DNA of 63,989 bases, counting the filler, from Hausera hauseri (taxonomy: Eukaryota), in NCBI GenBank assembly GCA_046269625.1. It is 11 parts of 11 records of this genome, joined end to end, with 100 filler letters (N's around TTAATTAATTAA, not from the genome) between each part and the next. Parts side by side here need not be neighbours in the genome. Positions count along the whole stretch, not along the records: positions 1 to 4,000 come from JBJURY010828527.1; 10 more parts are not named here. One strand, given 5' to 3'. The position numbers and the translations under genes are program-made. The notes under the pieces are model-generated. The model saw only the letters and a list, made by a program, of their open reading frames with translations, made no database searches and was not told where the DNA came from. Of the stretch, positions 1 through 52,751 are shown piece after piece; the first letter of the stretch is position 1; the number at the start of each line of letters is the position of its first letter.

Positions 1-285
1 ATTTACGCATAAACGGTGTTTCGTGGTATTGGCTTTCTTTGCCATAACTATAGGCAATGGCCATGGTAATTTACTAGGTTCAATGATGTCTTTTTCTAGC
101 ATGGCTTGTATTTGCTCTTCAACTTTCTTTTGGAGTGCTTTTGGAGGTGGGTACCATTTTGGTACTGGTTGTCGTAGTACGTCTATTTCCTGTCCAGTTT
201 GAGGATCCATCATGAATGCTAATTTGAACTCAACCAAATCTGTTCGGCCAATGTCTGTTTCATTTTTGGCAAATATGTTAATGTA
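1..285 (-). pseudogene. Ty3/gypsy reverse transcriptase N-terminus (glycoprotein-first family A1)
   Basis: Minus strand reads IFAKNETDIGRTDLVEF...PVPKWYPPPKALQKKVEEQIQAMLEKDIIEPSKLPWPLPIVMAKK...RLCVN, the typical start of a gypsy RT; truncated by the window edge. Confidence 0.85.
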
Positions 286-1030
286 TTAAATGATGAGATC
301 TGAAAAGTTCTCAAGGTACTCAGCGGCTAGATTTTTCTTTGAATTAGTAAGAACAATATCGAATATATCATCTGCTTTAGTTTCCTTATCTGCAGTCATT
401 GCTGCGATTTTACTATCATATTCAGGTTGGCGAATAATTTCATATGCTTGGCCTAATTTCGTTCTTGCAAACATTGTAATATACTTAGGAGATGAATTCA
501 AAACTACGATGGGAATTGTCCATCTAGTTACACAAACACAATAATGTGGCAATAATAATCCATTTTGAAATATCCGTGGTATGAATTCAATTATTTTGTT
601 ATCTGGAAATATTGTTCTAGCATGCATAACCTTCCTAGAATTAGGTGGTATTTTCTCCATATGTCCTATCCAAACGTCCGTTTCATTGTACGTATCTGGA
701 ATATTCTCATTGTTTGGGCAAAGCGATCCTGACTGCAAGTTTGTGTGAAATCCTTCCAAATTTCTTAATACATTCATTCCTAAAATATATCGTCGATCTA
801 GAGTTGTCATCACATCTAAAGTCACTTTTAGTTTTTTACCACAAATTATAGGTTCGCATTTCCAATACCCATATGGTTTCAGACATTGCTGAAAGGCTCA
901 TGTCGTACCCGTACATTCTTTTGAGGCCAATCTTATTTGTGACTGATATTCTTCCGGTATCGCATGATTTGCTATTAATGAAACGCTGGCTCCGGTATCT
1001 AACATTGCGTTTGTATCAAATGTACCGAAG
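286..1030 (-). pseudogene. Retropepsin aspartic protease followed by a dUTPase-like spacer domain
   Basis: AMLDTGASVSLI (DTG at about 999-991), then ILGMNVL in ORF 286..825 and IPPNSRKV...IPIVVLNSS...TKLG, resembling the degenerate dUTPase-like segment between PR and RT in many gypsy elements. Confidence 0.8.
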
Positions 1031-1799
1031 TGAACTGTCGTATGAGGTCGATTATCGCTTATCAGTTTGAGAAAAGTCAGGATGTGATTATGATCATCTA
1101 TATGTGGCTCTATTAAAGTATAACTTGCTGCATAATAACTTGGTGATCCATTTGATAATATGACAGTTAAACTGTCTAAGGATTGCGGGTCATTTGCTGG
1201 CTCTTTCGTTCGTTGTTTGAATTCAGTTAAATCCGGGTAATAACTTGCACGTTCAGTAAAGTTTTGCTGTATTTTAGCAGGTGGTATTGTTGAAATCAAA
1301 TAATTTGTCCTTCCGTTTGGTTGTTCGATATAATTCTCGTTGGTTGGTCTATTTAGTTTTACTCGATGATGAGGTATAGGTGGCAAATATTTTAATTTTG
1401 GAGAGATTGGTATTGATACTCTATTCTTTTCCATCTTTTGTGTAATAATAGATTGAAGTATTTCTTCTTGCGAATATTTAGGAATACTGTGTAGCCGTAT
1501 GTATTCTTCTCTTTTTCCATATGGATCATTTAGGTCAGATAACTTTGGTAGTTTGTCAATTGTTTGTTTGTCAATCGGACGTATTTTACTTTCATACTGA
1601 GCATCTGGTACTATTTGATTGTTCTTTAATTTTCCTTTCTTTATTGTAAAAAGTTTTCGGATTTTTCTATTCTTTTTCTTAGAAATATTCGGTTTTGAGT
1701 ATTGTCCACGTGTGTTATCATTATCATCTGAGCTTGATGAGGTATCTTCCAGTATCGGATTGTCATTCTTATAATCCACATGCTTCTCCAATTTACCTC

Positions 1800-3290
1800 G
1801 CCATTGCTTTTTATGGTAAGCTTTAATGACTTTGCCAAGCGGAGAAAGTAGAGCACCAATTATGCTTAAAGATAATTCTGTCAGATTGTAAATTTCATAA
1901 TCGTTTAATACTGAATTGATACAAAATTTCAAAATTTGTAGAATAAAATAAATAGCTAGAAATCCGGAAGCTACTTGTCCGAATTTTAAAAATCCACCCC
2001 ACATTTTGTGCCATAGACTGGAAACTATTTTTGTATAAGCATCGGGCATCCACAATCGATCCCATTTTCCTTCTCCAGCAGAATCATCAATTACTCTATG
2101 TATTCCCCTATTTACTACCTGCTCTCTTTTTCTAGGATATGCCAGAAATTTTACAAATGAGTCAATTTCTTTTTTGCTATACAATGCTGACTTTGATACA
2201 TTACTAAACATATTGGTTTCAATGGCATGTCTGAGATTAGTCATCGTCAACTTTTTTGGTTGTTCCTTTACTCTATCTCTATCAGGTAGTCTGACCCATA
2301 AGTCTTGATTATCGTATTTGATAAATAGATTGTTCAGTGCTGTACAGTTTTGAATTTCCGTTAATATTGTGTGTGGCGCCAATAGTTATAGGCTAAACAT
2401 ATCGAATGTCGTCTTTGTACTTAACTGATATTTGTGAATAGCACGGGGTGCCAGTGATTAAAGGTAGTTCCAGTTTCTTACATTTGTAGGTAATAATACG
2501 TCTCCTAGGACTTTGCCCTGGATTCCTTCGCCAAATGGTAATGTTATTGTTATCATATCTGGATTTGAAGCGTAAATAGCCAATCGATTTCTGAACGTCT
2601 CGAAATTTACTATACAGAAATTCTGTATTGTTTCAGAATATATTTTTTCTATCGTTTTGTGGGTGAGATAATATAGGAAATCATGTCTGTTAGCGATATA
2701 GTAAGCAATGTTTACTAATTGAGCTCTGTTAACTGGCGAATTATCTGCCTGCGCAATTTTCTTTTTCCGATATGAAATAATTTTCATATTTTATACCGAA
2801 CACTTGTTGTCCACATTTAACGGTCACGTCTTGTTGTATAAATTTAACTCTTCCTTTTATATCCTTTGATATTATAATTTTAGGGGTTCTCACCTCTGGA
2901 ATTGCTTGGGTGTTTGTATTTTCAAAATTTGTTTCATAATGTCGAGCATAACGTTTTCCTGTCGTTACATTAAATTCGCCTTTTCGAATCTGTACCAATG
3001 AGCAATCATAGCTCTTAGGAGCTGTCCATACTATCGTAGATGACTTTGTGTGACAATGTCCTATTTCTAATTTGCAGAAAGATGCATCCATCATTGTTTG
3101 TACTCGTTTCGAAAATAAAGGTATTTTTTATTTCGACTTCATATTGGTCATGTACTACCACTCCTGAAATGACACCTTTCCCTGTATCAAAATTACCTCC
3201 TCGGCAATTTCCTTTTTCATTCTTATGTCCGACGATCCATTTCTCTTGTTGAGAAATTATATCTGTTCCGAGATTATACATACTCCAGAA
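1800..3290 (-). pseudogene. Chuvirus-like (Jingchuvirales-type) envelope glycoprotein, frameshifted and 5'-truncated
   Basis: Ordered motifs GNCRGGNFDTGKGVISGVVV, CKLEIGHC..TIVW..DC, KCGQQV, FCIVNFE..ASNPD..GIQGKVLGDVL, ALYSKKEIDSFVKFLAYP and hydrophobic WGGFLKFGQVASGFLAIYFILQILKF match the chuviral G pattern; the C-terminal half shares ORF 898..2382 with the protease. Confidence 0.8.
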
Positions 3291-4000
3291 TAAGATGATT
3301 TAGTCGACCTAAGAATCCTTTGTTTGGTAGGCGATTCTCATTATGAGGAAGTAGTGAATCATTGTTTAAATTTCACCTATGATTGTTACATACTTTTTCC
3401 GAGGCCTGTTAATTTCTTCTCACTTTGGATACTTATTTCCAATCCTTATGTTAACATTCTATTTGATATTATACGAATTTAACAACGGGTAACATTTCAA
3501 AAGTTCACTTAGTACTTCTCACATTATTACTATTTTCCTTTAATCTACTTACGTTTCACGAATATAAGATGAGTAATACTTCATAAGGAGTATATTTATT
3601 CCTTTAGTGATTTGCCAATAGAGGAAAAATGCATCTTTTAAACAGAATAGATGATCATTTATTATATTCTTAACCAGGTACAATTCACAATGATATTATT
3701 AATCTTTATTACCGTTAACAACTAGGACCACAAAAATATACTAATTCGTGCCTCGTTTCCTATTTTCACGGAGCTTATTATAAATACATGCTAAGATTAT
3801 ATCACATAATTCCCTTGTTGGCTGTTTAGAGATAATTCGATAATTATCATGTTACACCAGACAAATTTTCTACTCGTTCATTCCCATTCACGTACACTAA
3901 ACGTTTATTGATTTTTCTACTAATTGAGAAAATATACATTTGACGAATAAATTCCGTCTTACTCAGCACTTTATTTACCTTGGCTCGTCCAAGCTTACCG

Positions 4001-4100
4001 NNNNNNNNNNNNNNNNNNNNNNNNNNNNNNNNNNNNNNNNNNNNTTAATTAATTAANNNNNNNNNNNNNNNNNNNNNNNNNNNNNNNNNNNNNNNNNNNN
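4001..4100. other. Artificial contig spacer (N-TTAATTAATTAA-N, 100 bp); also at 11774, 17366, 21689, 25823, 32623, 38659, 43917, 50912 and 54953
   Basis: Identical 100-bp structure occurs ten times; the core gives stops in all six frames. Confidence 0.98.
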
Positions 4101-4446
4101 TCTTTCTTATTATTTTTATAGTATTCATTCTGATAATATAATCTAGTCTGCTGATTTTTATGATAATATTTATTTTGGTCTTTTTTATAACAAATTTTGC
4201 ATTTAGTTTTATAATAAGTACTTTTATCACTATAAAATTCACTAATATCTTTTTTAATATTGCATTTAGCACAAAATCCTTGGGTTTGGGATGTGAATTT
4301 TGGATATTCGCACTGTTTTTTCCCGATCGATTGTGAAAAATGCACCAATGTCCAATTTGGTCATAACGAATGTCTTCTCTCGGAAAATAGACTTTTTTAG
4401 ACATTTTTGATGCTGACTGGGCCGATGAATTAGATGACCTAGCCAT
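4101..4446 (-). pseudogene. Cys-rich fragment: piggyBac-like C-terminal zinc finger running into a CxxC...CxxC ribbon
   Basis: DIRYDQIGHW..KQCEYPK...FCAKCNI resembles the piggyBac tail (compare VRLDSIGHLP..RCRLC at about 16790), followed by KKDISEFY...CKIC. Confidence 0.4.
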
Positions 4447-4706
4447 GCTTTTTTACAGGGGCAATTTTATATTTACACAGAGATTCGGCAACCTCTGTTC
4501 GAAACGTGGGAAGCGGTTTTCTGTCTTTTCCAGGGTTCACACTGTGATACCAAATATGCGTTCACCAATGCTACGTCAATATGATGGTAAATGATACGAT
4601 TCGTCCATTTGTGCGTTTTCATGCGGATTGATAACGATCAAGTTACCAAATCATCAAATCGACACCTCCCATATGTTGATTATATTCTTTCATTATTTAT
4701 GGGCAG

Positions 4707-7370
4707 CAGGGTGGCCCAATTTTTTTTGGAAATTACGTATGTATTGCAGTTAAATGTTTTACTTTCAACATGACAATAAACCACGCAAAAAATCATTAGT
4801 TTTGGTTAGCATTTATTGGTTGTTCAAAGGACATGAAATTTTATATGATATCATTAATGCGATTTTACAGTAATTTTTTACAAATTTACATCATAATATC
4901 AACATTTTCTGAGAATCTATACCATTCTATGGTTACCACATCTCTGCTAATGACAATAAAGTTATTATTTACAAAAAAACAACTATCAAAGTTAGACAAA
5001 GTTCACTAGTCACAGCTGGTCCCAGTCATGTACAGTAGTCATTCTCGCATCACATACGTGATCAGTGTCTGTTTGCTATAGTCTGGAAACCGCTTTCTGT
5101 GATCTTCTATCACTTGAATTAGTCTTTGAATTTTATTTTCATTCTTGATAATAGGGGTGTTGAAGTATGACATTAATGCTCTTGGACGTTCAGCAATGTC
5201 GTTGACAACTTTGAGTTGACAATGCGCTTGTTCTGGATGTACACATGTGAGTCATTCCAGGTTTCTGGATCAGTTGTCATGATGAAATTCACGTCAAGAT
5301 GTAGCAGCTATAAACTTATCAGCTGGTTCAACTCTTTATTTTGTAGATCTGCGCATTTCTCAAGCCGGATACCTCGTATGGTGGCCTCTTGTCTACAATA
5401 TTGCATTCGTTGGCTAATTTGACGCTTTGCCTCCAGTGAAACTCTGTTGGAGAACAATGCCAGTGGAACCAGCTGTGGTCCATCATACCACAAGTGGTTA
5501 TCACGTTTTTGCAGAGCAGCATCTGCCACAGCCTTACTCATCTCAGCATATTGATTGATGTTCCTAAGCAACAGCAAGTCATTAAGAGCCGCATCACTCG
5601 CCAGCGGACATGAGATCCAAGCTTTCATATATACATGACTGACAAACGGACAAAATTGTTAGATTCTTAAGCTCTATTGCTGTCATTTTAAAATGTTCTC
5701 GGAATAGCATAATCTTGAAACAATATATGACTTTAGTCGTCCATCTGACTTGGTGGACAGCACCTGGAAGTAGAAAGCGGTACTTGGTCTCAGTCTCATG
5801 TGGTGCATCAAGAATCAGGCGGTACAAGTTGATGAGTTCTGTGTAATCATCTCGTGGTATGTAGGCATTATCTGATGACTGGTATTTTTGCAAGAAAGTG
5901 ACTACTTCTTGTCGCAGTTGTGTCATGACTGGCAGTAACATACGCGTATCTTCTAATGGCTTGAAGTTCTGTTGAACAATGAGGCTAAAAGGACTGGAAG
6001 CGTTCAAATATTGCAATGTTTGTGCTTTTGCTCGGCCCAAACAATATTGTAAACATTCCAGCGACAATCAATTCATCAACATGATGCCTGTATGCAAAGT
6101 ACAGAAGCTTTTATCCAAGTTGCTGGTCGAGAAGAACACATGCGCCGTTGTGTGCACCTGTGTTGCTGTCTGTTGTGTCGAAACACGCCCACAATGTCAT
6201 GAGCAACTTCCCAGAGATTCAGCAACTGAGTGGTAGCAGCTGCTTGTGCCTTTTCCGGTTCCACATGATGTTTTACTGATGCCAAGTATTTCGCTGACCG
6301 CGTATCCACTTACAGCTACGTCAACCATATCAACATTGGATTTTTGGTCTGATGAACTATTGTTTGTGGTGGTGGTGTCCCTCATAAGCTTGCCATCCCA
6401 GTGAACAACTAAAGGTGGCTTGTCATTCTGGAAATCGCCACGTGTTCAGCTATCAATGTATGACCTGTGAGTTGAACGCTTACGTTGCATTGTTTGCCGT
6501 GAATGTACCACTATACTTAAGTCTTCCGTGTTAGCTTTAGCTATTGCTGCTACTAGTATAGCAAACTTTTTGTCACTCAGATTGATTTGATCTAAGACTG
6601 AGGAAACATCAGGACTATTTAGTGTTTTTTCAAGTAACCTGGATCTTTTGGATTCTACTGCTGTCATATCACATTCATCATCATCATTATCATCACATTC
6701 TGACTTTAGACGTGTCAAATGTCGTTTGTAGTGTGTAGGTATCTCAAACTCTATCTTTTCACTATCATTCTCATCATCATGACTTTAAGTGTTACTGTCA
6801 CCAGAAATATTATATCGAGTGCTGATTTGTGAAATTGACTTGTTTTCTCGAGCCTCTCTCTGTTTCTCTTTCTCGTTTCGCTCCAGTTCTTTTAGCCTGC
6901 AGTTTGCTGATCGTTCCTCTTGTTCCAATTGTTTAACACCGCTCATCACTATTTTCTCAATGTTCTCTGGTCTTCTAGAAGCAAATTATCATCGATTTTG
7001 ATCTGTCTCTGAATACTTGTGACTTACGTCAAACAGTTTCAGCTTGGTTTTAAGCCTTTTTCACGGCATTGTTGAGTAGCAGAGTCTATGGATTTGTTCT
7101 TTTTCAGGAGGTTATATTCATCAACCAGTGACCTCAATTTTCAAGTGATGTTTTGTAATAGGGCTGTTGGTATTTGAGCAGGGACCCATATTAACAGCAA
7201 CTGATCTATTTTAAATTTCAGGCTTTGGGAAAGTGAATTTGGTGTATTGTGATAATAGAAAGTTCACCCCACTTCTGTTGTTAGTAAGACCATTGCTGGA
7301 AGGATAGGTTCTGGCTGGCCAATCAACTATACTGCAGTTTTACTCCTTGTCTTGTGAGACTCCATTAGAC
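4707..7370 (-). mobile_element. hAT-superfamily (hATm-like) DNA transposon with degenerate transposase
   Basis: VVHWDGKL, FDTTATG..GAC, YFAYRHHVDELIV (CxxH-like), PGAVHQVRW..KVIY, NHLWY; CAGGGTGG at 4707 resembles an hATm terminus. Confidence 0.75.
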
Positions 7371-8329
7371 CTAAAGAATTAAGGAAATGATTTAATGGTA
7401 AACTAGTGCCTTTGAATTAAATTAAACATTTTTAAATTTCAAATTAAAATTGCAGACATTGTAAGCAACAATGTCTGCTGCAAGTCATTGCATAGAATAT
7501 CTATTTAAGAATTTTTTAATTTGTAAATAAATACAAGGATTAATCAAATAAGCCAACAATTCATTATCTATATTATACTTAGATCGACTAATTCAGATTC
7601 TGCGTTGTTTCTGCAGGTATTGTAAAATTAAAATACATGTTTATATGAAATATTAACAAAAGGTTGATTATGTATTTCAGCTAAAGGTATGTTGGAAATG
7701 ACATTGCATACGAGAAACACAAAAACTATTATTTGAACAAACTAATTTTGAATAAATTCGTTTAATGTAAAAAGATGTACATATTAACATTGAATCATTT
7801 TTTTGTTTTGTATTTTGTTTTTGTTTATATTTAAAGAGGAGAAGGAACTATTGAGACACTCTGTAGTGAAGCTGTAGTATACATTATGTTTGATCAAAGG
7901 TTCTGTTCTAAGATTAATCAACTCTTGACTACAATATCATCTTTGCGTTTATTATTATAGACCAAGAATTATGGAACAAGGGTCCTATCAGGACAGTGAA
8001 AAACTGCTGCACTACAAGTGGGGTATCTTAATACTGAAGAAAGGCATTTGTGCATATAGCTGGGGTCAATATTAGTCTATGCTTCGATTTGACCCATGAT
8101 ATACCTCTGCCTAAAGGGAATGGACTGTTTGAAAAGGAAAATTCCAATGCTTGCAATTAATAAGCAGCACTAGTAAGATAGGAGTGCAGGACGCCAACCT
8201 CCTTGCTGAGAGTTAGAATCAATTTGGTTTGGGGATGTGTGATGGGTGAGAGAAATTGATACACATGCACGTTTAATAGGTCGGAGATAGGAGGCATACA
8301 GTTTTCAGATTGATCCCTTTGTATTTCAG

Positions 8330-9205
8330 GACTGGTTTTTTCTGTTTTCAGAGCGTAAGACTTTGGTCGTAAGAAAATCCCTTCATGATATTCAACACAA
8401 TCCTTACTATCATCTTTAAATTTTCCAATAACAGCTGAGAATAGAGATGAGTAAAGTGGATCACGCACATCGTAGTTCGAAGTATCTAGCTGCTCATTTT
8501 CAATCATTGGCGGTAAAAGTTGGGATCGTAAGTCAACACCACTGCACTCAAGAAACTCTCCGTGAGAGCAGAAGTGATATTAATCTCGCAGTAAAACTGA
8601 TGCCTGTACATTTCTAATTCGATAGTTTAATTTATACATCCTAAACTTAGACAGATCAATTACTTCCTGACCGATGTATGAAGGCCTGTCTAAAATAACT
8701 ATCTTTATCGAGGAGAATTGCAACTAAATCATCAACTATAATAATAATCTCCTTAAACAGTGCTTTGCTGGTATATGTTATAAGCTTCTTAGAATTATTA
8801 CACAGCCTCAAGTTGGACTTTTTGAGGAGATTCACAACTGTTTTGCCATATAAGCTATTGTTTTTCAGCTTAAAGAAATATTTCTCGAAAGTATTATTTG
8901 CTGCAGGTCTTTTAGCGGTGTTTAAATCAATCTAATCCTTAAACATATAACACTGGTCACATTCAACAGCCCGATAAATCTTTTAAACAACAGCACCTAA
9001 CTCAATGTAAAACTGCAGAAGCAGGTAGTGAATCACGTAGTTGGATTTACGCTAATGTGTCAACAACAATTTCTTAACTTTTGACCCAGGAGAACATTAA
9101 ATGACTAATGCTAAAGGCAGTTGATCTAATTTATCCTGTTTGTCAGACGGAATACTTATATCCACTTCAAACACAAAGCCTCGTTTTTCCTTAACATTGC
9201 TAAGA
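8330..9205 (-). pseudogene. Polinton/Maverick protein-primed family B DNA polymerase, C-terminal fragment
   Basis: GFVFEVDI, FKLKNNSLYGKT, LDTSNY...IGKFKDD, FLRPKSYA. Confidence 0.85.
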
Positions 9206-9210
9206 TAAAG

Positions 9211-9543
9211 TGTGGTTTTAATAATCCATTTGGATTATTCGTAAATAAAACCTTTGATTTGATAACGACAAACAAACTAATAATCATATCTGTAAAAAAA
9301 ATTAATTCAAATTTCAAAATTTTTTATTTCTGAGAAACCATATCAAACACAATTAAAAGAAATGTGGTACACGAAACCGTTAAAAGTTTATAAAATTTGG
9401 GGCACAACACAATAAGGTTAAAACGACGAAAATGTATCAAATTGTCGGCAATTACGAATACGAATAACAGAACAAAAAAAATAATAGTGTATTTACAGGT
9501 CAATCGAGGGTTCAAAGAAACATATTTCTTGTTGAGCACTACA
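9211..9543 (-). repeat. 3' LTR of gypsy family B, copy 1
   Basis: Minus strand TGTAG...CCACA, preceded by the polypurine tract GGGGGAGGGGGTGA (9544-9557); abuts the PolB remnant. Confidence 0.65.
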
Positions 9544-11773
9544 TCACCCCCTCCCCCGTAGCAAAGCAACGACTAAAGAGGTAAGAAAATGGAAGATGTG
9601 TAGAAACGGTGTAGGTTGTCTAAGTGGTCTTTGTATGAATAAAACGATGTACCCCTGCAGTATTAATCTCCTTATTGTAGGTAATAAATGTGACTGATTT
9701 GCGCATTTTCAATGTCTTTAAGTCTGGTTGCGGAAAAGATTAAGGAAAAACAATGTCGGGTTTCGGCGTTGAAGGTGTTGTGTCGTTCAATGACGAAAAA
9801 GAAGGTGGAGGAGTAGATGTAGAAGAAAAGGAAGGAAAGGTTGGAAGGTTAGTAGGAAGAGAGTTTGGAGTAGGGTCAGATCAAGGAGTAGGTAAACGGG
9901 TCAGAATGGAAAAAGATGTAGGGGGTGTAGGAATTGAAAAGGTACAAAACGGAGGAGTTAAAAAAGGGATAGAAGATTCAATTTGGGGGTGTCGTCTACA
10001 AAAAATGCAGGCTTGACGTTGTTGATATGTACCGCTAGTTCCTTACCGTCTTTGGAAATAATGGCATTGTGAGAGTGCAATTTGAAGAGTTTGTAAGGCC
10101 CCAAATACCGTGGCTGAAAACCTCACGGTGTTTGGTTTCTCAGCCAGACAAACTTTGCAGAATATAAATCGTCGGGTAGGTACGTTTTATTTTTATGTAT
10201 TATTCTGCAGAATGAATCTCTACTGACTGAGACAAAATGATTCTGTGCCGTTCGGATAGCTTCGTTTGTTGGTGTATCTTCCAAGGCTGTTAACTCAAAT
10301 AATGAACGTACAGGCGTTCCGAAAAAGGCTTCTGTAGGCGAACAACCAGTAGCAGTAGAAGGATTGTTACGCCAATCCAGAAGAACCAACAAAAAAAGAG
10401 TAGTCAAACTGCTATTGAATTATGCGAGGATTCTCAGTGACGTTTTTAGTGTTATGTGGAATCTCTCTAGAAGACCATTTGATTGGGGGTGATACGGTGA
10501 TGTGTGTATATAGCTGATTCCTAATCGGTTAACGAAAGATTTGAAAAAATTGGACTCAAACTGAGTACCTTGGTCCGTAATAATGAATCTACGGGATCCA
10601 AATTTGCTGATCCAAATGCGTATGAAAACGTCGGCTATTGTGTCCATGTTAGTGTTGTGTAGGGGGACAGCTTCTGGCCAACGTGAGGAACGATCCACCA
10701 CGGTCAAAACGAACTGATGACCGTTTTCAGGAGGAAGAGGGCCAATGAGATCAACATAAACAGACGCGAAACGTGATGTGCAAGGGAAATGATATAGTGG
10801 TGGCTTCAATTGTTTGGCACTTTTAAATTTCTGGCAAGCCACGCACTCCTTAACCCACGCTTGCACATCGGAACGCATAGTCGGCCATATTACTTGCCGG
10901 TGGAATAAGCGAAAAGTTGCCTTAGCGCCAGGTTGGTGTAGAGAATGTACACTGTTAAACGCTTGTCGTTGTAAAGGTGGTATGAGAATTATTACGAAAT
11001 AACCCGGCTTGGAAGTTTCTAAAGCCACGCCGTCAACAATTTTGCAAGATTTAAAAGAGGCGGCTGGTTCTGTTGGAGTTGTACTTGAGTAAAGATTGGT
11101 GAAAAATTAATTGAACCAACCGTCCTAGATAAGAAATCGGCAACCAAATTTTTAAACCCTTTAATATGTTTAATGTCAAAGTTAAATGTCGGAAGATATG
11201 ATTTCTGTTGTTTTAGTTGGCGCGAGGAAGGATGTTAAATAGCCATGATGTTTAGCAAGAGCTTCTGGTCGGTCTGTATGGTAAAACGGCGAGCGACAAG
11301 TAGGTGGGAGAAATGCTTTAAAGCGAGTACAATGGCCAATAATTCACGATCGAACGTTGAATATTTAGTTTCAAGGAATGTTAGCTTACGAGAAAAAAGT
11401 CTAGCGGTTGATTGTCGCCTTCGTGTATTTGATGAAGCACAGCACCTACCGCGGTGGTTGAATCGTCTATAGTAAGGATGAGTTTCGTATCAGGCCTGGG
11501 GAAAACGAGAATGTCGGCGGTTTTAATTCCTTCGTGTAGCTTGTCAGACATATCAAGCAGTTCGGGTGTCACCGGATTGGCTTATGTTTTTTGCCACCGC
11601 TTAAGTGAGCAAATGGTGTGGTAAGTTCAGAGCATTACGTCACATACTTGCGAACGAAGTGCAAAGTTCCCAAAAAGCTTCTCATTTCTGTTGTTGTTCG
11701 AGCTAGTTGTATACTTTTGAGTGCTTCAACCCGTTCAGGCTGAGGAGAATGACCATTTGCTGAGATGATGTGT
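9544..11773 (-). mobile_element. Ty3/gypsy family B copy 1: end of RT, RNase H, integrase, low-complexity tail
   Basis: RH motifs (YSTFDRELLA), IN HSLHQPG..CVAC, VDLIGPLP, TDQGTQF, YHPQSNGLLERFH; colinear with 33545-35770. Confidence 0.9.
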
Positions 11774-11873
11774 NNNNNNNNNNNNNNNNNNNNNNNNNNN
11801 NNNNNNNNNNNNNNNNNTTAATTAATTAANNNNNNNNNNNNNNNNNNNNNNNNNNNNNNNNNNNNNNNNNNNN

Positions 11874-12330
11874 TCTCAGTGGAGATACGGGCTACATACT
11901 GGAGGTGGATGTTGAATATCCAGCTTCCATCCACATAATGCATGAACAGCTGCCTTTCCTCCATTACAGTAAGCCTCCTCTCCATGGAAAGCATAGAAAA
12001 CTGCTCTGTCATCTGGACAGTAGGGAGAGGTATGTAGTCCACTACATAAATCTCCAGCAAGCGGTCAGAAATGGACTCCGCATCACGAAGATCCATCGGA
12101 CCCTGTAGTTCAGCCAGTCAAACTGGCTGAAGCAATATATAGATCTTAATACTAAGCTGCGGACCAATGCCAAGAACGACTTTGAGAAGGACCAGTTCAA
12201 GCTTTACAATATCAGCTTTTTTGGCAACACCATGGAGAATATCCGCAACAGGATTAACATTGAGTTGGTCCGTGAGTGGAAGCGGGCAAAGAAGCTCATT
12301 GCCAAGCCCCATAGATAATCCTATTTGACT
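11874..12330 (+). pseudogene. Polinton PolB fragment
   Basis: GYILEVDVEYP..HEQLPF, YVVHYINL, YIDLNTKLRTNAKNDFEKDQFKL..FFGNTMENIRNR. Confidence 0.85.
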
Positions 12331-12499
12331 TTCCAACTGTATGCCATAGAGACAAGGGGAATCAAGTGACATCATCAGATTTTTTCGAAAATTCAAAGTT
12401 CGATATTCGGGCCAAAAAAATTCGAATTTCAAATATTTGACTCGATATTCTAGATCTCCATACTCGGTTTCCTATCTGTCCCGATCAATGTAATATCGA

Positions 12500-12950
12500 T
12501 TTTTGCTTCCTTAGGGCCTAAAAAACCTATGAGCATTCACCACCACCTGCACCTTCGATTCGATATTATTCGACAACCACTCGATCGATTTAAATTCTAA
12601 TTTCACATTCACATAGTGTACCGTTTTCCAATCGATTTCATCCGGTGCCATGTGCTGATCACCAATATTGGAATTATCGGAAATCCGATATTATTAATTT
12701 ACACCCACTTGCACATGTACAGGTGCACTGCACAGTGTACAAATCGATGCGCCTTGATGTGCACTATCGATTAGCACTTTGTGCTAATCGATTCGATCAA
12801 TAATGCAATGTGCAGCGATCGATTTGTGAAATGTGCAAAAGTGTGCATAGCAACGGTGCCAAACGGCACAGTCACCATGCATGTGCCGATCGATAGTGCA
12901 CCGGGTGTACTATTGATTAGCACATGTGCAGTATCGATTTATCGGTTACC
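12500..12950 (+). repeat. Palindrome-rich noncoding repeat (copy 1), probably Polinton subterminal
   Basis: Colinear with 21040-21410 (+) and 17055-17360 (-); dense ATCGAT/GTGCAC/TGCACA words. Confidence 0.7.
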
Positions 12951-12989
12951 CCCCACCCCGGGGTTGTGGAGAATGCCCATTTTCTCCCT

Positions 12990-14064
12990 ACTTATTCGCT
13001 TTGGTGAATCTTCGGATTCTGGTTTTTGAAGTGCTGAAACCATCAACTTTTCTCCTGGATAGAAACATCTATGTCAAAGAATGACAATGCAATGAGATAT
13101 TCACTGAAGTACCAGAGGTGGCCACTAAACTTCCTTAGTGCACTTTCTGCTGTTTGTGAATCGAGCGAGAACAGTGTTTGCAGAAGCTTCAAATCATTTG
13201 CTGCGGCGATGGTTGAGAGCCGAGACAAGAACCACGATTTCAGGTAATCTGAACTCAAAATATGCAAAGTTCTGCCAAGCCTTTTTGTTCACTGTCGGTA
13301 AGCTTGAAGTCAGAATGTAGAAACAAGATTATCTTGTATGCATATATCAACTTGGCCATGAAGCGAGCTCGATGCAGTGCACCGGATTTGGTTTTGTGAA
13401 CACCACGAGGACGTTCAGCACCCAGAACCAGAATGGTTAGCTCAAGTAGTTATCTGTAATCATCATGGGTCTGAGTATTTTCCAACTGAGAGACTAAGAA
13501 ACTTAGCTTCTCCTTTGAAGTCGTGTACTGCGGCTGTTATTTGTGGGTCGTATGTTTAGCTCCAACCAGACTATCCTTCATATGATCCAGAAGATAAATA
13601 CCATCTTTGCTACGAGTTCCAAGAGCCATACCTATCAAACAAAGCAATTTAACAATCAGGTATGACTAATTTAAATCAATACAATATTTACTTTGTATCA
13701 AGCAAAATGTATTCAATGTTTGCTAGTTCTAGTAACCTATCTACTTCAGTGCCTACTGCATTTAGTATTACAAGTATAACTCACCGTACATTTATCAATG
13801 AAGTTAGATCTCCGCAACTAACAGCACCAAATAGTAAATCCAATGCTATAGCGAAGAAACTTAATCAACAAACAACTCACGATTATAATTCACTTGTTTG
13901 TTTATTACAAAATGGCGACAGGAACTGACCTTGATAGTGATATCATTGATGTCAACAGAACAAAGAAAAGTATGTAAGCTGTCAGTGATCAAATACTAAA
14001 AATAATCAACCGAAAACGAGATTTTCGTACAATATAAAAATGAAAACAACTTGAGCATACCCTA
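12990..14064 (-). mobile_element. Internally deleted hATm-like transposon fragment
   Basis: PGALHRARFMAKLIY, AAANDLKLLQ, KFSGHLWYFSE; minus-strand TAGGGTATG at about 14064 is a possible terminus. Confidence 0.65.
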
Positions 14065-17465: not shown

Positions 17466-19400
17466 AACTAATACGGGTATATCTCAGCATTGCTGCCTAT
17501 CTCATCCCGGAAAGCGTAAAAAAATGAGATCCAAAGCATGGCTCTTCATCGTAACATCCCCGAAGATCTCAAAAACATCCGTCAGCAGCAGCACGTCCGT
17601 CTTTATGTATATATCACTGTATTTCCCTATTGTCCTGGACTGGAACGCATGCCAGACGTTCTGGGCATGCTGATAATCTTCATCACTGATATAGTTATCT
17701 GATAGGATATTGTAAACGTACTTCTTGGCTGGCAATGAGGTTTCATCCAGTGTTTCCCATGAGGTAATATAGTCATAGGGAAACACGCATTTTCTCTTGG
17801 CAAGGTCAAATGTAATGGGGTATAACCGCTTCGCCGCCTTGCGTTTTTTTGCAGGCAGGTTCTCACTAAACTGTCAAGTGAAGAAGATGTGAAACGGAAA
17901 CTGTCTACGAAGCGGCATCTGATTTTCCCAACATGCTTCGTAAAGTGACATGTTTTTCCTCATCATTAGGAATCACATCAATGTTTCCTTCAATGTTTTC
18001 CAATTCTCGGCCGATGAAGTGGGAATCATAGCCACTGAGGTTGTAGAACAATACAGGAACGTATGTACATATTTTGTAACGTAGATTGAAGTTGTTGCAG
18101 GCTACGCCTCGATATGTGACTGTAAAATGGCAGTGATCCCTGACTTTCAAATTTTCCGCTGTGAAGGACTTGTCGCACAAGTAACATGCTGTTGTCTTGC
18201 GCCATTCATCTTTTTGCTGCGTCGACATTCACTGCATCTGTATGCTGCTGAAACATGTTTTTAATTTTATGAGCTATATCTTCAAGTCGTTTCATGAACT
18301 GTGCTGCTGCGCCTGGATCTCTGAATAGAAATGGTTCACTTTCCAGTCCTTTAGAATACATGCAATACGATGAGAGCTCATGATATTGGAATGCTGTTGT
18401 TCTGCTGTATTGTGGATTAGGGCTGCAACTCTGAACTGGACGCAGGATTGCTTCAAAGTCGCAACAGATGCTTATTGGGACATTGGGCTTCTTCTCGAAC
18501 TTCTTAAATTCAATGTAGTCCTCCTTGGGAAATTCTAGCCTAATATAATAATTGTTATTGCAGTACATCTTACGCTCCTTCAGCTTCGCCACAGCTAACT
18601 TGCCACTGAAACAGGACAGACATCTTTTGCATTTTTCGAATTTTTCAATATGTTTCGTAATTTGGGATGTGGCTAGACGTTCAAAATTCTTTATCCAGAT
18701 GAAATGCCTCTTCAGCATCATCTAGTCAGAGAAGATCCCTATGGTGTTCGAATTCAGCATCACATATCTCCAGCGGATAGAATTTGTCCTCCTCATCCAA
18801 TCCCAAGATATTGATGGACATGTTGCAGATTGTCTCAAATTTTTTGACTTCACTATGGATGGAGAGAACTTGATACATTGGAAGTCATAGTTGTGCTGCA
18901 CATGCTTATATAGCCAAACTCGTGAAGCATGATTTTGATTCGTTACAAGTTTCAATAGAATGGCACACATGAAACACATATTGTCATTATTATGGACATT
19001 GACACACGCTTTTTATTAGCGATCCAATCAGGGAGCTGAATATATGAACTACCCCACGTGGGAGAGTACTTGTGAACATACACAATCAATCTCTTGATGG
19101 TTGCCAGAGTCCATCCGCTATTCTTATCCTGGCTGTCCCCTGCTTCACGGATCAGCTTGTCGTTCGCCTCTTGCATCCATTTTGCTATATTGGTGTTTTC
19201 CAATATGGGTCTCTTTTTGGTCTTGAAGGCCCTATTGGATTCTTCGTCATCAACATTGATGTATGTGGCTTCCAGTTTCATATTCACCTTAAAGAATTTG
19301 AACTCAGCCATGTTGTCCTAAAGAATCTCCTCTGTCTCTTCCCTTGTGTATAAGAGGAAATCTCAGAGGGTTGTTTGACCAGTTGCTTCAATAACATATC
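17466..19400 (-). pseudogene. Polinton PolB, N-terminal and exonuclease region, multiply frameshifted
   Basis: SGWTL..GSSYIQLP, CFMCAI, HFIWIKNFERL, CDFEAIL, CYLC..RDHCH..YRG, NLSGYDSHF, FPYDYI, YIKTDVLLLTDVFE. Confidence 0.92.
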
Positions 19401-19416
19401 TGCGGTATTTTTTCTT

Positions 19417-20130
19417 TTATGCTGCCGCATCAACTGGCCGCTGTCTTTGGCTTTTTGATAGAGGCGGTGCGTCTGATGTGGCCATACCTGATGTGGTTGC
19501 GCCTGATGCTGCTGCGCATGATGCGGCTGCGCGTTTCAGTTCTCTAATATACTTTGCGGCTGCTGCACCAGATCCAGAAACATAATGCGAGGCATAATAC
19601 TGCGAAGTATCATACTGCGAAGCACATGCATCAAAATTGTATTTCTCATTAAAGATGGCCTTCTTTGACTTTGATGCGAAGTGACTTAAATGATGTCCAT
19701 GATCATTATAGAACTGTATGTAATCTGCGTCGCATACAGTCTCACATCCTGGGCATATATAAAAGAGGATCCTATTGAATTTGTATCCATAATAACTCCT
19801 CATGGCATTATGACTGTTTTGAGGGTTGTGTATTGCACATGTGTAATACACGTATGAACTGCACCTTTGATTTTGCTTAGGCATAGAAGTCATTATTGGC
19901 ATAGTGGGATTGAATATTTGTTTTTTCGACTTGGTGAAGGGAATCAGGTGTTGTTTATGAGCATTGTAAAAGTCTTCATATTTGGTCTGGCACACTACGT
20001 CAAATGTAGGGCATATATAATACGCAGCCCTGTTGTATAGATGGCTGAACTATTTCTGCATAACGTTGTAGTAATTTCCAGTCTCGTGCATTTGAGCCAA
20101 GCACTGTTTGTATAGATTGCACATGTAAAA
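19417..20130 (-). CDS. Unknown Polinton-associated ORF with a duplicated Cys/His module, upstream of PolB
   Basis: YYICPTFDVVCQTKYEDFYNAHKQHL and FYICPGCETVCDADYIQFYNDHGHHL repeat; ORF 19417..19995 plus an upstream extension past a stop. Confidence 0.45.
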
Positions 20131-21039
20131 ACCAGCCAATTATTTGAGGAGCACAAATAAAAATCTCATTATTCGTGGAAGTGATTCTGAAAATAATGAA
20201 ACATATAGCAATATCAACGCATACTGCTTCATTTATGGATTTTTTAAATTTTCGAACATTCTAGAACACTTTGTTTTACTGCATCAAATAAATTAAATGC
20301 ATTTGGGCGCAAAATAGGTCTTAATACATAGGGAATCGATTAAAGCCATTAGATTCTTCGAATAATGCATACTTGACCAAATATTATCGAATTTTTCAAT
20401 GTATTATCCATTTCGAGACACTTGTAAATACTTTGCACACCTAATTTTTGGTCTACAGCGGTTTTCGGACATGGAGCATCCAATGGTATTATTCGAATAT
20501 TCGAATTCTATCAAAAAGTCGGCTTTGTTATTTAAGTCTCTTTTCGAATATCTGACGTCATATTCGGATTTTCCATATATGGATTTGTATCCCTCTACGT
20601 TTTTAGATTTTTTGATTTTTGCTTCTATTCGAATAGAAAATAAATTATTAGTAAAGTTCGACTTGTATTCGAGTTTTTGAATATCTGATGTCATAATCGG
20701 ATACAGTACATGTTAGTTTCTATTTGTGTACGCTTTTATATTTTTTGATTTCCACTTGCTTGTGTGTTAAAATCAACTTTATAGGTTTTATTGGTAAAAA
20801 AGTTATTAATGATTAAAGCACACTTGCACATGTGCGACTCATCTGAAAAGTGCTATATAGATGCATTAAGACATGAGGAATCGACTGGCGCTCTCAGATT
20901 TCTCAAAAATATTATGGGTGTCAAGATAATCGATACTATTCGGTGAAAATGGATGTTTATTCGAGTTGTGCACTGAATTTCGGAAATCTGAGATGAAAGA
21001 CCCGGGTTCCAATGTGGCACTTCCTGTCTGTTCCCGCTT

Positions 21040-21410
21040 AAACATTTGTCGAATTTTTGACTCCTTGGGACCTAAAAAAAGTATGGGAAATCTGCGTCAG
21101 TTGCACTTTGGATCGACATTATTCGAAACTGACTCAATCGATTTAAATTTTAATTGCACATTCACATAGTACATCGTATTTCCAATCGATTGCACCCAGT
21201 GCCATGTGCTAATCATAAATATTGGCAATAGCGGAAAACCGATATTATTGATTTTTGCACACTTGCATATGTGCTGCATACCTGCGCTGTGCACCGATCG
21301 ATGTGCACTAATATGCACAATCGATTAACACTTTGTCCCGATCTATTTGGTCAATTGTGCTATGTGCACTGATCGATTTGTGAAATGTGCAAAAATGTGC
21401 TTAGTAAAGA
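21040..21410 (+). repeat. Palindrome-rich repeat (copy 3), upstream of PolB
   Basis: Colinear with 12500-12870. Confidence 0.7.
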
Positions 21411-21788
21411 AGACTTTGCTTGGCAAAGTCGGGGGATCGAAATCATGAATATGACTTGGTTTCTTGTCGCTCATAATTCAAATTGAAGTCTAAAGAGTTT
21501 TAAAAAAGTATTTGTTTTTTGTCCAATATTTAAACAAATTAAAAATAAATAATATTTTTGCTTATTATTTATTTTTGCTGCTCCATTACTTTCCCCTCTC
21601 CTTTATGATCATTGTTCACTCTTTTCAACCATTCCACTCTTCTACGAATCATTCTACCATCTTCCATGTTTTTCAACTCCCACTGATGNNNNNNNNNNNN
21701 NNNNNNNNNNNNNNNNNNNNNNNNNNNNNNNNTTAATTAATTAANNNNNNNNNNNNNNNNNNNNNNNNNNNNNNNNNNNNNNNNNNNN

Positions 21789-24120
21789 TCAGAACACAAT
21801 ATTTGTGCCCATGCCTACGTAGATGTTTTTTAGTTGTCGTCCTTTTGGTATTATATCCTTGTCAGCAAATTCTATAATCTGCTAGATAATCCTATCTCTT
21901 CTTTGCTCAGTTGAGATTTTAATCGCTTTATCCATTATTAGGGCGCGTTGGCGTTTTATTATTTCTTCAAGCTGACTTTTCTTCCTAACAGTAATTGCGC
22001 TTGTTTTGGTCTTTTACCTTGATAGTGTATCGGCATTTACATGTTTACTTCCTTGCTTATATTAGAATTCGATAGTATATCTAGAGATTTCTTCGATCCA
22101 TCTGTTAAGCCTGCATGTTGGATTATTTTCTCGTCCTTTCAGGGTAGTGACGGCTTTATGATCAGTAACAATTATGATTTTCTGCCAATACACAAACGTT
22201 AAAATGTCGGAGCGCTTCTTTCACTGCTAGAGTTTCTAATTCAGTAACAAAGTAATTTTTTTCGGCCTTCTTCAAGGAACGTCCTCCATAAGCAATTTGG
22301 TGTTCTAATTCTTCATCTTCTCTTTTCTGTGCTAATTTATGTCCAATACCTTCCTAACTGTCGTCTGTCTTGATTATAAAGGGTAAGTTAAAGTCTGGGT
22401 ATCGTAAAACTGGTTCGCTTGTTAATATCTTCTTCATCTCATCAAAAGCTTTTTGTTCGACGTCTGTCCATTTCCATTTAATTCCTTTTTTAAGTAGGCG
22501 GTATAGAGGTGCATTAATTTTTGAATTATCTGGAACATAGGTTGCGTAATATCCGCAAAGTCATAGCCAGTGTCTTAATTCTTTTTGGTTTTGCGGTTCC
22601 ATGCGGTTTGATATTTTATTAAATAATGGTTTGTCTGGTCTCGATCCTCCTTCTCCAACTATATGGCCAAGGTAGGATACTGCGTTTTGAGCCCATTTAC
22701 ATTTCTTTGGATTTAATTTCAATCCGGCTTGTTCCAGTCTCATTAATGTGTGTTCGATATTTTTTAAGTGTTCCTCTTCTGTCCTTGATGCTACCATTAC
22801 GTCGTCTGGGTACGCAAATGCATGATCCAGTCTCATTAGTATTTTGTTCATCATTCTTGTAAATATGTTTGGTCCGGTGGTAATACCGAACGGCATGACG
22901 TTAAATTCATAGATACCATCGTTTGTTTTGAATGCTGTCTTATAACGATTACATTTTCAATTTCCACTTGCCAATATCCGGATTGTAAATCCAGAGTGGT
23001 AAACCATTTGGCTCCTGAGAGTCGATCTAAAGCCTCCTTTACTGACGGTAATGGGAAGGAATCTTTTATCATAAGATTATTTAAGGCTCTGTAGTCAATA
23101 CAAAATCAATGTTTTGTGGTACCTTTTTTCTTAACCATGAGGATTGGTGAATACCAAGATCTACAGCTGGGCCTAATTGTATCGGCCTTAAGCATTCGTT
23201 GGACTTCCTTCGTTATTTCAGGCCTTAGTGAATGTGGTGGAGGGTACCATTTCGGCATCTTCTTATCCTCAAAATCTATTTCTTCATTTGAACCAGGCTT
23301 TTTTTAAGCGGAATGGTCAGTTTTAACGCTTTCGCTCTACCGATATCTTCTTCGTCCTTAGCGATAGTCGATTTATAACGGCATAATAATTCATAAAATC
23401 GACAATAAGACTCAGGTGAAAACTTAATTTCAACGTGAGGTAAAAATTCGGCATACTTGTAAGACTTTTCTTCACTAGTTATTTACGATACTCTATACGT
23501 GTCTCCTAAAGTAGTATAAGCATGGAGTTTAATGGGAGTCTGCGTATTATTAGCTATTCTAATTGGCACTCGACAGGAGTGTACTTTTGTTAATATATTG
23601 CTGAGTAATATATTTAGATCTAATGTATCCCTTGGTTCAAAATATACTGGTTGATCGTCATCTTGCTGTATCTGGACACAAATTATCATTTTTGTTCTCG
23701 GTGGGATGTCTTCGTCTACAGGTATCCATACCTCTTCGAATTTTCTATATTTAGCGTTTTTCACACCTTTATTCGGTCTGATTTCTATCATCGTCCCCGT
23801 TTGTAGGTCAATTGCTATATTTGTCAACCTTTTTAGTAGATCGCATCCTAGAACTATGTCATTGGTTAATTGCTCAATAACTGCACATTCGTGATGGAAA
23901 AATTGTCCAACTATTTGAACTTCTGGATTCCATTTAAACATTTGTTTTGACAATTGACCAAAAGCTCCTGTACTTCCTGGATCTTTTGTAGACGGTGGAT
24001 ATATTTGTCTTCTCAGTGTTTGAAGTATTGAATCATTTTTGATGTAAGACATCTCGGATCCTGTATCGATTAAGGCCTAAACTTCCCAATCTTCAATAAT
24101 GATTTTGGCAAAGGATCTTC
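21789..24120 (-). mobile_element. Ty3/gypsy pol of family A2: PR, dUTPase-like segment, RT, RNase H
   Basis: ALIDTGSEMSYI (about 24065), IVLGCDLL, CIDYRALN, LDLQSGYWQV, MPFG, AYPDD (YLDD in the sister copy at about 50850), RH ELETLA..TDHKA. Confidence 0.92.
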
Positions 24121-24499
24121 TTTTTATTACTGTTCCGAAACAATTTAATGTATCCTTTGAGCGTTTCTCCGCAGATATTTTATGTCCATTGATTCGGATT
24201 TTGGGGAGGATACTACATTCTCCGACAACTGTCTTAATTCTTCGTTTGGATATAACTCGTTGTTTTCTATGTGCAATTCTGCCGTTTCGTGTGTACTAAC
24301 TAATGGTTCTCGATTGTTGGTGTGTAGTTTTGTATTTTGGAAGGTTTTTAACCTTGGGTTGTTCCAAATTGTTGATATAGTTTCTATGTTCCAAGGTTCT
24401 CTCGGAGATTAAAACATCTTGAGACCATCTGTGAATTGTTGGTAACACATTTTCCATAGGATTCCATAACGTTTCGTTCCTTCATAAGGTTCTTGTACG

Positions 24500-25822
24500 T
24501 TAATTGTTCATTTATAAATTTCCGTCTGATATGAACTTATTGATCGTTTGTCGCAGTCTTCATAGACTGGAGCGGTAGGAGGCAGCATAGGCAATGGCAC
24601 TTTAATGACAGAGTACGTTTTATGTCTGTTTATTCCTGAAAGTGCTTCTCCTCCCTTAGGCTTGTCATCATCTGAGTTATTTCTATGCGTATTCGTTTTT
24701 GTAAATTTCCGCTTCCGCAAGAATATAGGCCTTCCTCTTCGTTTACGATTATAATAACCGACATGGCGTACTATGTCCAATTTCCATCTGTTTTCTTCGT
24801 ATGCCTTTAAGAATTTTTCAAAGGGCGTTATGATCACCGTCAGTATTTTACATGAAAATCCAGTCAATGTAAATATTTCGTACCCATTTATTACTGCTTG
24901 GATGACTGCTTTAATCATTTATATGAGGAAATATATTGCTAAAAATCCGGATGCAGTTTGTCCGAAAATTAAAAATCTTCCCCAAATTTTGTAGAGTATC
25001 TCATTTAGCCTGATATATTGTATCATCTACTACAGAAGCCATGGCTCGGTTTGACTGGTGTGTTCGTTGTCGCGGAAAAGCGAGGAATTGCCTAAAGGCT
25101 TCGATTTCCTTGGACCTGTATATGCCTTTCGACGAGGTGTCTTGAAATTTATCGTCCGTAATTCCTTTTGCAAGGTTTGTTCCTGTTAATTTACTTGGGG
25201 CAGAAGTGATATCTCCATTTGGCAAATTAACCCAGTCTGTTTACTGCGTTTAAACATGGGTTTTCCTAAGCTTGCCTTACAATCTTTAAGGATGGTTGCT
25301 TGGGTCGCGTTATCTAGTAACACTCTCGTCAATGGTGTAGCTAACCTAGGAGTATTCTGATAAATAACAGAGAGTTCCTGAATGCAACGTTTTTCTTCCA
25401 CGTTGATGGGTACGTCTCTCTTTTCGCATTTATAGGTTAGCAATACTTCGCCTGTAACCCGACCGAAAATTCCCTCTCTCATGGGAATTATTGGAGGAGC
25501 CAATTCTGGGTTGGCATATATAAGAGCCGATTTAGTTCTCATAATTTCAGTATCTAATCTGCAGTCATTCATTATCATTTTGTAATACAATTCAGTTATT
25601 TCGACTTGCCCTTTGTAATAGAAGTATTAGTCTCTGTTCTTCAGGTAATCTTCAATTTGGATATTCTGTGTTTCTAGTTTGTAAGTTTTCGCATTTATTT
25701 CCGTTTCTGCAACGAAAATGCCTCATAGTTGGCAGCGAACATCACTACATCACAACAAGAGATCATTTCTTTTTAAATAAATTTCAGTCCGTGTTGATCC
25801 GAGTTCAATATAGTGGATGTAG
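24500..25822 (-). pseudogene. Chuvirus-like glycoprotein C-terminal half, TM and tail, upstream of PR (family A2)
   Basis: NDCRLD..YANPE..GIFGRVTGEVLLTYKC..RCIQELSV..ATPLTRVL, GIYRSKEIEAFRQFLAFP, IWGRFLIFGQTASGFLAIYF..INGYEIFTLTGFS; homologous to 1800-2800. Confidence 0.82.
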
Positions 25823-39335: not shown

Positions 39336-39713
39336 ATGTCTCACTTGACGACACAACTCATTAGCTTATACCACTCATTCGACAGTCTTCGGAACCACCT
39401 GTACAATCTCGATCGACCTTTGGACAATGCTCGATATCTGCCTCCGGAAGAGCTACTCCTACTTGCTGAGCAGAATTGGAGGGCACGAAAACCTTATCTA
39501 CACCATATGAAGCAGGTTGCTGGTGATATGGAATTTTTATTCAGTAAGATTTTTCGCTCATTTGAAAAAATGACGACGTTGGACGATAATAATACTCGTC
39601 AAGTACGTCAATTTATGAGCGATTTTGTCAAACGTGGTAGTAGTCAGACGGATTACATTCCTACGTGGCAGTCAGCAAATATTTTGCTTGAAGCAATATT
39701 GCAATACGATTAA
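39336..39713 (+). CDS. Hypothetical 125-aa protein, probably Polinton accessory
   Basis: Open ORF with upstream TATAAATA (about 39293) and downstream AATAAA (about 39824), next to TIR-like sequence; no family recognised. Confidence 0.4.
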   Translation: MSHLTTQLISLYHSFDSLRNHLYNLDRPLDNARYLPPEELLLLAEQNWRARKPYLHHMKQVAGDMEFLFSKIFRSFEKMTTLDDNNTRQVRQFMSDFVKRGSSQTDYIPTWQSANILLEAILQYD

Positions 39714-39879
39714 TTCCGATGGTCTCGATCATTCTTCTTCTTCGGAATTGGCTGTTCCCTGTGGTTTGTGTAATCCGAATTGATTCGAACGATTTCGTAC
39801 CAGTTGCAATACTAGTACAAAAGAATAAAAGTTTGATGTATACTTTGTTTTCTCGTTACTCAAAACGATCATTGTAGCG

Positions 39880-40130
39880 AGGTAGGTGGGAAAATGCGTT
39901 GTCCAAAAACTAGGTTAAACAAAAATGTTTGTTATAATCAGATAGGTGGGGAAATAGTGTTTTCCGGAACTGGGTCACAGAAAAAAAATTTTTTAAACGC
40001 TTGTTATAGTCAGAATGTGGTTTTCCGGAACTAGGTCAGTCCAAAAATTTTTCCGACTCAACTCATCTTGCTGAGTTCAAATATGCAGGTGTCCAGAACT
40101 AGGTCAGTCCTACTTTTTTTCCGACCGAAC
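39880..40130 (+). repeat. Short degenerate repeats (TCCGGAACTAGGTCA; GATAGGTGGGGAAA) related to the TIR motif
   Basis: Four copies of the ..AACTAGGTCA-type core; GATAGGTGGGGAAA recurs at about 41307. Confidence 0.6.
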
Positions 40131-40539
40131 GAAATGCCACAATAACAAAAATAAAAAATTAAATAAAATAAACAATATAAATTAAATAAAACAAAAATAA
40201 TAAATAAAATAAATTATTTTAAAATAAAATTATTAATCAAAGACCAAAACTTACGTGGTCCATTCTTCGGCTATAACTAATTCATAGAAATGACTGTAAG
40301 CTAAGTGTCTCGATATTATACATATGGTAGTGTGTCTCTTGGTAATACTTTACTGACAAACACTGTTGATTTTGCAAATATTGAATGTACATTAAAGAAC
40401 AAAATCTAACCAGATGTCCATTATTTCGAGAATGCCGTTTACACTACTAGTAATAGACCAAATCGTGAGAAAAAGTATGACATTTCCATTACTGAGCTTT
40501 TTGACGTCCTACTCCATACACACACAATGTTCCACATCA

Positions 40540-41385: not shown

Positions 41386-41493
41386 ATAGTTTATTTGCGT
41401 TTCAACTATCAAACAACCGAGACAACCATATGTCAGTTTACTGTGCATCCTTGTGGTGCCATAGTACTGCTCATCCATCAACGTCATGCACTG

Positions 41494-42330: not shown

Positions 42331-42349
42331 GGCAATAATAACGCATGTG

Positions 42350-42770: not shown

Positions 42771-42850
42771 TGAATTAAGTATAATAGTAATAGTAGTAAT
42801 AAATTACTTCATAATACAAAGAAGAAAAAGTTAGGCACAGCGGATTTTAT

Positions 42851-48670: not shown

Positions 48671-48679
48671 CTCGCGTTG

Positions 48680-52748: not shown

Positions 52749-52751
52749 ATA

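Follow-up and report, generated by a model that had tools for sequence, protein, structure and literature searches.

A decayed, probable Ty3/gypsy-type element of Hausera hauseri with a predicted class III envelope glycoprotein in frame upstream of its protease

A chuvirus-like glycoprotein (G) that reads in frame into a retropepsin protease (PR) was found on a contig of Hausera hauseri (JBJURY010828527.1, assembly GCA_046269625.1). The contig occupies positions 1-4000 of the 63,989-nucleotide stretch of 11 contigs and N spacers analysed here, referred to below as the window. It very probably holds a decayed copy, truncated at its 5' end, of an abundant Ty3/gypsy-type element that has a class III envelope gene in frame upstream of PR and reverse transcriptase (RT) and likely has gag 5' of env, as in Burro and the GAG-ENV-POL errantiviruses. 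The original prediction held that env in Metaviridae and retroviruses lies 3' of pol, a view overtaken by passages in PMC6431247 and PMC13524379 that describe gag-env-pol elements with a mononegavirus- or chuvirus-like G. To judge by sequence, the window family is a divergent addition to this already published layout, its G being at most 33% identical to that of any relative found.

Structure of the element

The features of the G-PR contig, and of a second G-PR family elsewhere in the window, are as follows:
1..285, minus strand: spacer and start of RT (about the first 70 residues), preceded by the stop at 288-286 and cut by the contig end at base 1 (tblastn, RT comparison)
433..687, minus strand: dUTPase-fold domain between PR and RT, a predicted fold (structure model, Foldseek)
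757..1047, minus strand: retropepsin protease, LDTGA at 1002-988, broken by the stop at 900-898 (Pfam, motif, profile)
898..2385, minus strand: C-terminal part of G, transmembrane helix (TM), linker and first half of the protease in a single open frame (ORF call, Pfam, motif scan)
1050..1760, minus strand: predicted cytoplasmic linker from G to protease, without CCHC (motif scan, alignment with relatives)
1819..1893, minus strand: second, weaker hydrophobic stretch, 1.3-1.5 (hydropathy)
1918..1974, minus strand: TM helix of G, aa 138-156, mean hydropathy 2.0 (hydropathy; position common to all relatives)
2386..3263, minus strand: central section of the ectodomain of the class III glycoprotein, broken into four pieces that correspond to profile positions 129-428 of 648 (tblastn, Pfam, and a G profile built on database proteins)
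3264..4000, no strand: flank outside the family, near single-copy depth, without G, gag or head match (depth, profiles)
21789..25822, minus strand: second, separate G-PR family, decayed (Pfam, profiles, tblastn, depth)

The minus-strand ORF at 2385..898 runs from stop to stop over 495 codons, or 494 aa if counted from the TTG at 2382. At the local composition the chance of a 495-codon open frame is about 4e-18, and that of the 245-codon linker staying open is 2e-9. Pfam matched Monjiviricetes_fusion (PF24664) at aa 20-229 of the ORF (E 4e-26) and the RVP protease at aa 444-483 (E 8e-6). The original prediction of a 494-aa ORF joining G, TM, a low-complexity linker and an LDTGA protease stood with regard to G, the TM and the LDTGA motif; the linker is rich in K, I, P and S and not truly low-complexity, and the ORF contains roughly the first half of the protease, being closed within that domain by the stop at 900-898. 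The WG motif and the catalytic DTG are 333 residues apart in the window copy, as against 130-390 in 13 relatives. No CCHC knuckle occurs in the ORF or in any frame of segment 1-4000. The hydrophobic stretch at 1893-1819 is likely membrane-adjacent and not membrane-spanning, a topology that we infer.

Beyond the stop at 900-898 the same frame continues for 203 codons with the rest of the protease and the dUTPase-fold domain. The model of this domain has pLDDT >90 across residues 71-150, and the Foldseek matches listed are all dUTPases (best E 9e-4). RT follows downstream, as had been predicted, with its first approximately 70 residues in the same frame behind the stops at 900-898 and 288-286 and running to the contig end; from the C-terminal part of G through TM, linker, PR and dUTPase fold to RT, the frame is thus interrupted by these single stops. 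The RT piece, whose best matches are MLV (E 0.008) and Ty3 (E 0.27), is not long enough to be typed; polyproteins aligned to it carry gypsy-type RT_RNaseH and Integrase_H2C2. The predicted in-frame fusion of G upstream of the protease was borne out, the pol being probably of Ty3/gypsy type.

Upstream of the ORF the glycoprotein is broken. Frame changes near 3125, 2760, 2495 and 2385 split the G of the window copy into five pieces, which together correspond to positions 129-634 of the 648-position profile. Its signal sequence and first approximately 130 residues, the first fifth of G, are absent, and the G profile found nothing past 3263 on contig 1-4000. Sequencing depth drops at the point where similarity to G ceases, and the copy is therefore 5'-truncated inside G at approximately 3260. 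Everything 5' of this point has been lost from the copy, which is a decayed, dead fragment. No repeats were found for segment 1-4000 among the matches listed, and both element ends are missing from the contig.

Abundance and a second family

Depth was calculated by aligning contigs of two runs, X1 and X2, to positions 1-4000 and summing them; it is not equivalent to copy number, and the source sample may be X1 itself. All 24 bins of 1-3216 had a summed depth of 2,134-13,805 in X1, falling to 755 at 3217-3350 and to 1.4-5.3 over 3351-4000 (five bins). The shape was the same in X2, with 37-262, then 23, then 0. Over the linker the X1 depth was 2,969-4,796, the lowest bin (2,969) lying across the TM-linker-PR junction within 1207-1742. 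The linker is tiled by contig pieces with 24-37 differences, and no single contig spans G to PR. A fusion confined to a single copy would produce a dip in depth at the junction, and since there is none the junction is common to the family. The G-PR order is a family trait present in many copies.

The second family has the same order, with G at 25734-24820, TM, linker, PR at 24106-23825, and RT and RNase H at 23252-21915. It is 27-44% identical to the first family at the amino acid level, and blastn found no match between the two. Its depth is at least 878 in 30 of 30 bins, and the best match of its RT is Ty3 (E 2e-19). Decay hides the frame across its linker, and its G is cut by the contig end. 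No gag, LTRs or PBS of the window family were seen; since both window G-PR copies end inside G, the missing gag is uninformative. No gag profile or head match was found anywhere in the window, a weak blank in that the profile combined two real gag sequences with the non-gag head of P0154.

Database relatives

The ORF was compared by phmmer with 1.84 billion representative proteins, which gave 195 matches at E <=0.001, the best 150 of which were listed. PR follows G in one ORF in 10 of the 13 best matches by Pfam, and in at least 11 among the 150 listed; the protease profile was built from the matches themselves, so Pfam was taken as the independent count. The other three of the best 13 are P0004, which ends 25 residues past G, the stand-alone G P0010 and the fragment P0011. 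P0018, with a protease-like piece ahead of a G piece, was left out of the 11. The PR-dUTPase-fold-RT region of the window aligns with the G-PR polyproteins at E 1e-24, and four proteins (P0006, P0009, P0151 and P0154) continue through RT, RNase H and integrase. Word-index protein searches at near or longer lengths (one pass covering 2,898-5,000-aa proteins only) returned no match, and no related locus was present in the metagenome contigs or the prokaryote genome contigs searched.

A CCHC knuckle lies upstream of G, within one ORF, in four of the 11 G-PR relatives (P0006, P0007, P0012 and P0092) and downstream of G in none. The predicted lack of a capsid or CCHC between G and PR thus agrees with both the ORF and the relatives. 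The remaining seven have no knuckle; four of them start at or inside G and three have heads of approximately 150 residues. P0092 matches Retrotrans_gag at 79-173 (E 1.7e-4, just below the curated Pfam cut-off), and the N-terminus of P0012 aligns with this gag region (E 5e-10). The P0012 N-terminus also resembles Retrotrans_gag/Ty3_capsid clusters (0.94), with an Atlas shared-feature count of 153, under the 170 mark; no capsid was retrieved when P0012 was searched by sequence against the PDB. Ahead of G in P0004 there is a weak Bcl-2 match, below the curated Pfam cut-off, and the head of P0003 is similar to that of P0004. A hydrophobic stretch lies approximately 20 residues ahead of the G start in eight of the nine relatives with a complete G start. 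The placement of G in the gag position, part of the original prediction, was not supported, as the window copy breaks inside G at approximately 3260 and four of the 11 G-PR relatives have gag or CCHC upstream of G.

Several polyproteins contain two to seven protease-like domains (P0007, P0151, P0003 and P0009), P0151 having seven, one of them behind integrase. P0006, a 2,627-aa CCHC-G-PR-RT-RH-IN protein, is an NCBI hypothetical protein of a Flavobacteriaceae MAG, which probably reflects animal contamination of the bin.

Identity of the glycoprotein

For the model of P0004, a natural relative (pLDDT 81), structural matches were obtained with herpes gB from the PDB (E 2e-13) and with chuviral G from a set of viral models (E 3e-43), on the basis of which the family is assigned to the class III fusogens. 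The G of the window would accordingly be a Monjiviricetes-type, chuvirus-like class III glycoprotein, as predicted, with the family taken from the Pfam match on the ORF and the fold from the relative. The best matches to the window ORF are polyprotein Gs (E 1e-21), and named chuvirus Gs come at ranks 27-28 (E approximately 1e-8). In two quick trees of the unbroken part of G (193 columns), the window G forms a long branch that is separate from the chuviruses and groups as sister to the polyprotein clade, with a support of 95 when its long-branch partner P0104 is included and 87 without it. Proteins shorter than 600 aa were left out of both trees, except P0002 and P0008, and the second tree was also built without P0104, P0139, P0091 and P0090 (long branches) and P0154 (a duplicate).

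Comparison with known elements

Burro/GYPSM1 of planarians is described as a giant gypsy-like element whose env, with matches to mononegavirus glycoproteins, lies between BCL2 and PR (Arkhipova and Yushenova 2019, PMC6431247). The same account presents it as the first case of an env placed in frame between gag and pol. It describes the element as very abundant, with a dUTPase-like domain separating PR from RT, an N-terminal gag, CCHC, SUMO-like and BCL2 cargo before env, and an ORF of approximately 5,000 aa in more than 30 kb with LTRs. The window copy is like Burro in that env lies in frame directly before PR (ORF 2385-898), a dUTPase-fold domain lies between PR and RT, and abundance is high. 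It is likened to Burro by description only, the 3.3-kb remnant lacking the region of gag, cargo and LTRs; Burro-like heads are found among the relatives, Bcl-2-like in P0004 and with knuckles in P0007. From G to RT the window copy differs from the 4,844-aa relative P0151 in having a single protease and in lacking ankyrin repeats.

A gB-type env in GAG-ENV-POL order is reported from Nematoda, Bryozoa and Platyhelminthes in Chary and Hayashi (eLife 2026, PMC13524379), where nine flatworm elements (six of Schmidtea, two of Prostheceraeus and one of Macrostomum, with up to 215 copies) are described and Sacco et al. 2022 (J Gen Virol) is cited for the nematode elements. Both the HSV/gB-type (class III) env of these errantiviruses and its position 5' of pol are found in the window copy, which belongs to a decayed and divergent lineage. 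The nematode non-canonical endogenous retroviruses reportedly include a metavirus with an RNA-virus glycoprotein before pol. By eye, the domain I-II rows of the Smed env shown in PMC13524379 have a cysteine and motif pattern like that of window 3263-2760. By analogy, the window element would work like Burro and the GAG-ENV-POL errantiviruses, the defining features found in it being the class III env, its place 5' of pol and in frame before PR, and the dUTPase-fold domain.

Other known systems differ. In Anakin-type BEL/Pao elements, G is a separate 3' gene. These elements carry a G of the same chuviral family (described for Anakin and others in Dezordi et al. 2020, PMC7642597) and were rejected as a match, since the window G is fused 5' of PR and no BEL-type Pfam family occurs in the window pieces or the relatives. 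The Gs of Lishi spider virus 1 and Hubei chuvirus-like virus 1 share the Pfam family and fold of the family G; they are stand-alone proteins of 650-670 aa, approximately 25% identical over the matched part, and lie in another region of the tree. A non-retroviral endogenous chuvirus, in which G stops shortly after the TM, was rejected because the frame runs for more than 300 codons into the protease. Troyka, of which no member encodes an envelope according to the text of PMC12440569, was rejected because the window element has an envelope G by Pfam.

Alternative explanations and proposed function

Three accounts compete with the gag-env-pol reading, and the idea of a one-off event is the least credible of them. 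It holds that a deletion, in this copy only, joined a gypsy protease to an inserted chuviral G or to an env that belonged to another element lying upstream. The window copy is indeed rearranged by its 5' truncation, and the genome is rich in mobile elements, but there is no single-copy dip over the TM-linker-PR junction and diverged copies tile the linker. Moreover, a second family of high depth throughout has the same order, at least 11 natural G-PR ORFs exist among the relatives, and the linker length of the window copy falls inside their range. A deletion fusion in one copy, named in the original prediction as what would overturn it, is thereby already largely refuted. An unlikely but more serious contender is that the family has the same gag-env-pol layout with a Monjiviricetes G captured independently of the Burro/Smed lineage, an account that overlaps the preferred one in mechanism. 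The distance of the window G (33% at best) and its long branch outside the polyprotein clade leave room for a separate capture, as do the modest support for its sister position and the finding, given in PMC13524379, that the POL tree does not unite the GAG-ENV-POL elements as a monophyletic group. The polyprotein Gs are nevertheless far ahead of the named chuviruses as best matches, and the PR-dUTPase-fold-RT region aligns with the same proteins.

It is also improbable that the element belongs to a capsid-less or re-ordered lineage opened by G, whose capsid would have been lost, come from elsewhere in trans, or lie 3' of integrase. Such a lineage would be consistent with the blank for gag and head across the window, with the long branch of the window G outside the polyprotein clade, with unassigned ORFs 3' of integrase in relatives of the second family, and with the ENV-GAG-POL order that PMC13524379 describes in two mites, which suggests that the order is labile. 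However, both window copies stop inside G, the closest relatives with long N-termini have gag or CCHC upstream, and the 3' ORFs gave weak matches to exonuclease, FN3 and RING and none to a capsid. A slightly less probable version combines both ideas: a separate enveloped gypsy lineage with its own capture of a Monjiviricetes fusogen, G first without an upstream capsid, pol entering particles on the env tail, and a capsid lost, borrowed or 3' of integrase.

In the preferred gag-env-pol reading, gag likely lies upstream of G, as four of the 11 G-PR relatives have gag or CCHC there and none has it between G and PR. An intact element would then encode one polyprotein, gag followed by G and then pol. 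An internal signal sequence behind gag would direct G to the ER membrane in type I orientation, and host signal peptidase would cut it off gag. The TM would stop transfer, leaving the linker and pol cytosolic on the tail of G, a topology that would work only if the hydrophobic stretch at 1893-1819 does not span the membrane. Within the budding particle the element protease could subsequently free PR, RT-RNase H and integrase, and G, as a trimeric fusogen, may allow the element to spread from cell to cell, such as from soma to germ line.

Other elements in the window

Two further copies, at 25923-32622 (plus strand) and 44017-50911 (minus strand), are 87% alike; over RT/RNase H, their similarity to the second G-PR element is 79-83%. 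Behind integrase, in frame, there is a putative second surface protein, made up of a signal-like stretch, a region that is rich in cysteine and FN3-like, and a TM. Hydrophobic pairs occur at the equivalent post-integrase place in P0006, P0009, P0151 and P0154. After that TM there are further ORF pieces with a weak RNase_T match (46230-46853, E 0.017) and a RING match (44584-44901, E 3.5e-5). An ordinary gypsy without G is present in two copies, 77% alike, at 9500-11773 and 33500-38000 (minus strand). The ORF pieces at 38759-43916, 51012-54952, 17466-21688 and 8160-8900 resemble remnants of the capsid, penton and DNA polymerase of Polintons; Pfam gave no match on these pieces, and a long degenerate inverted repeat lies within 38759-43916. 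A piece of an EH-domain host gene lies at 55182-55451 (plus strand; Pfam EH, E 3e-19).

Significance

Because its layout is published and it is a dead fragment, the window copy is a poor entry point for further study, and intact natural relatives such as P0006 and P0092 are better ones. What the window adds is two divergent, very abundant families to the little-studied group of polyproteins that join a class III fusogen to retroviral enzymes. A single polyprotein of this kind would imply processing by signal peptidase, with pol predicted to be tethered to the env tail rather than to gag.
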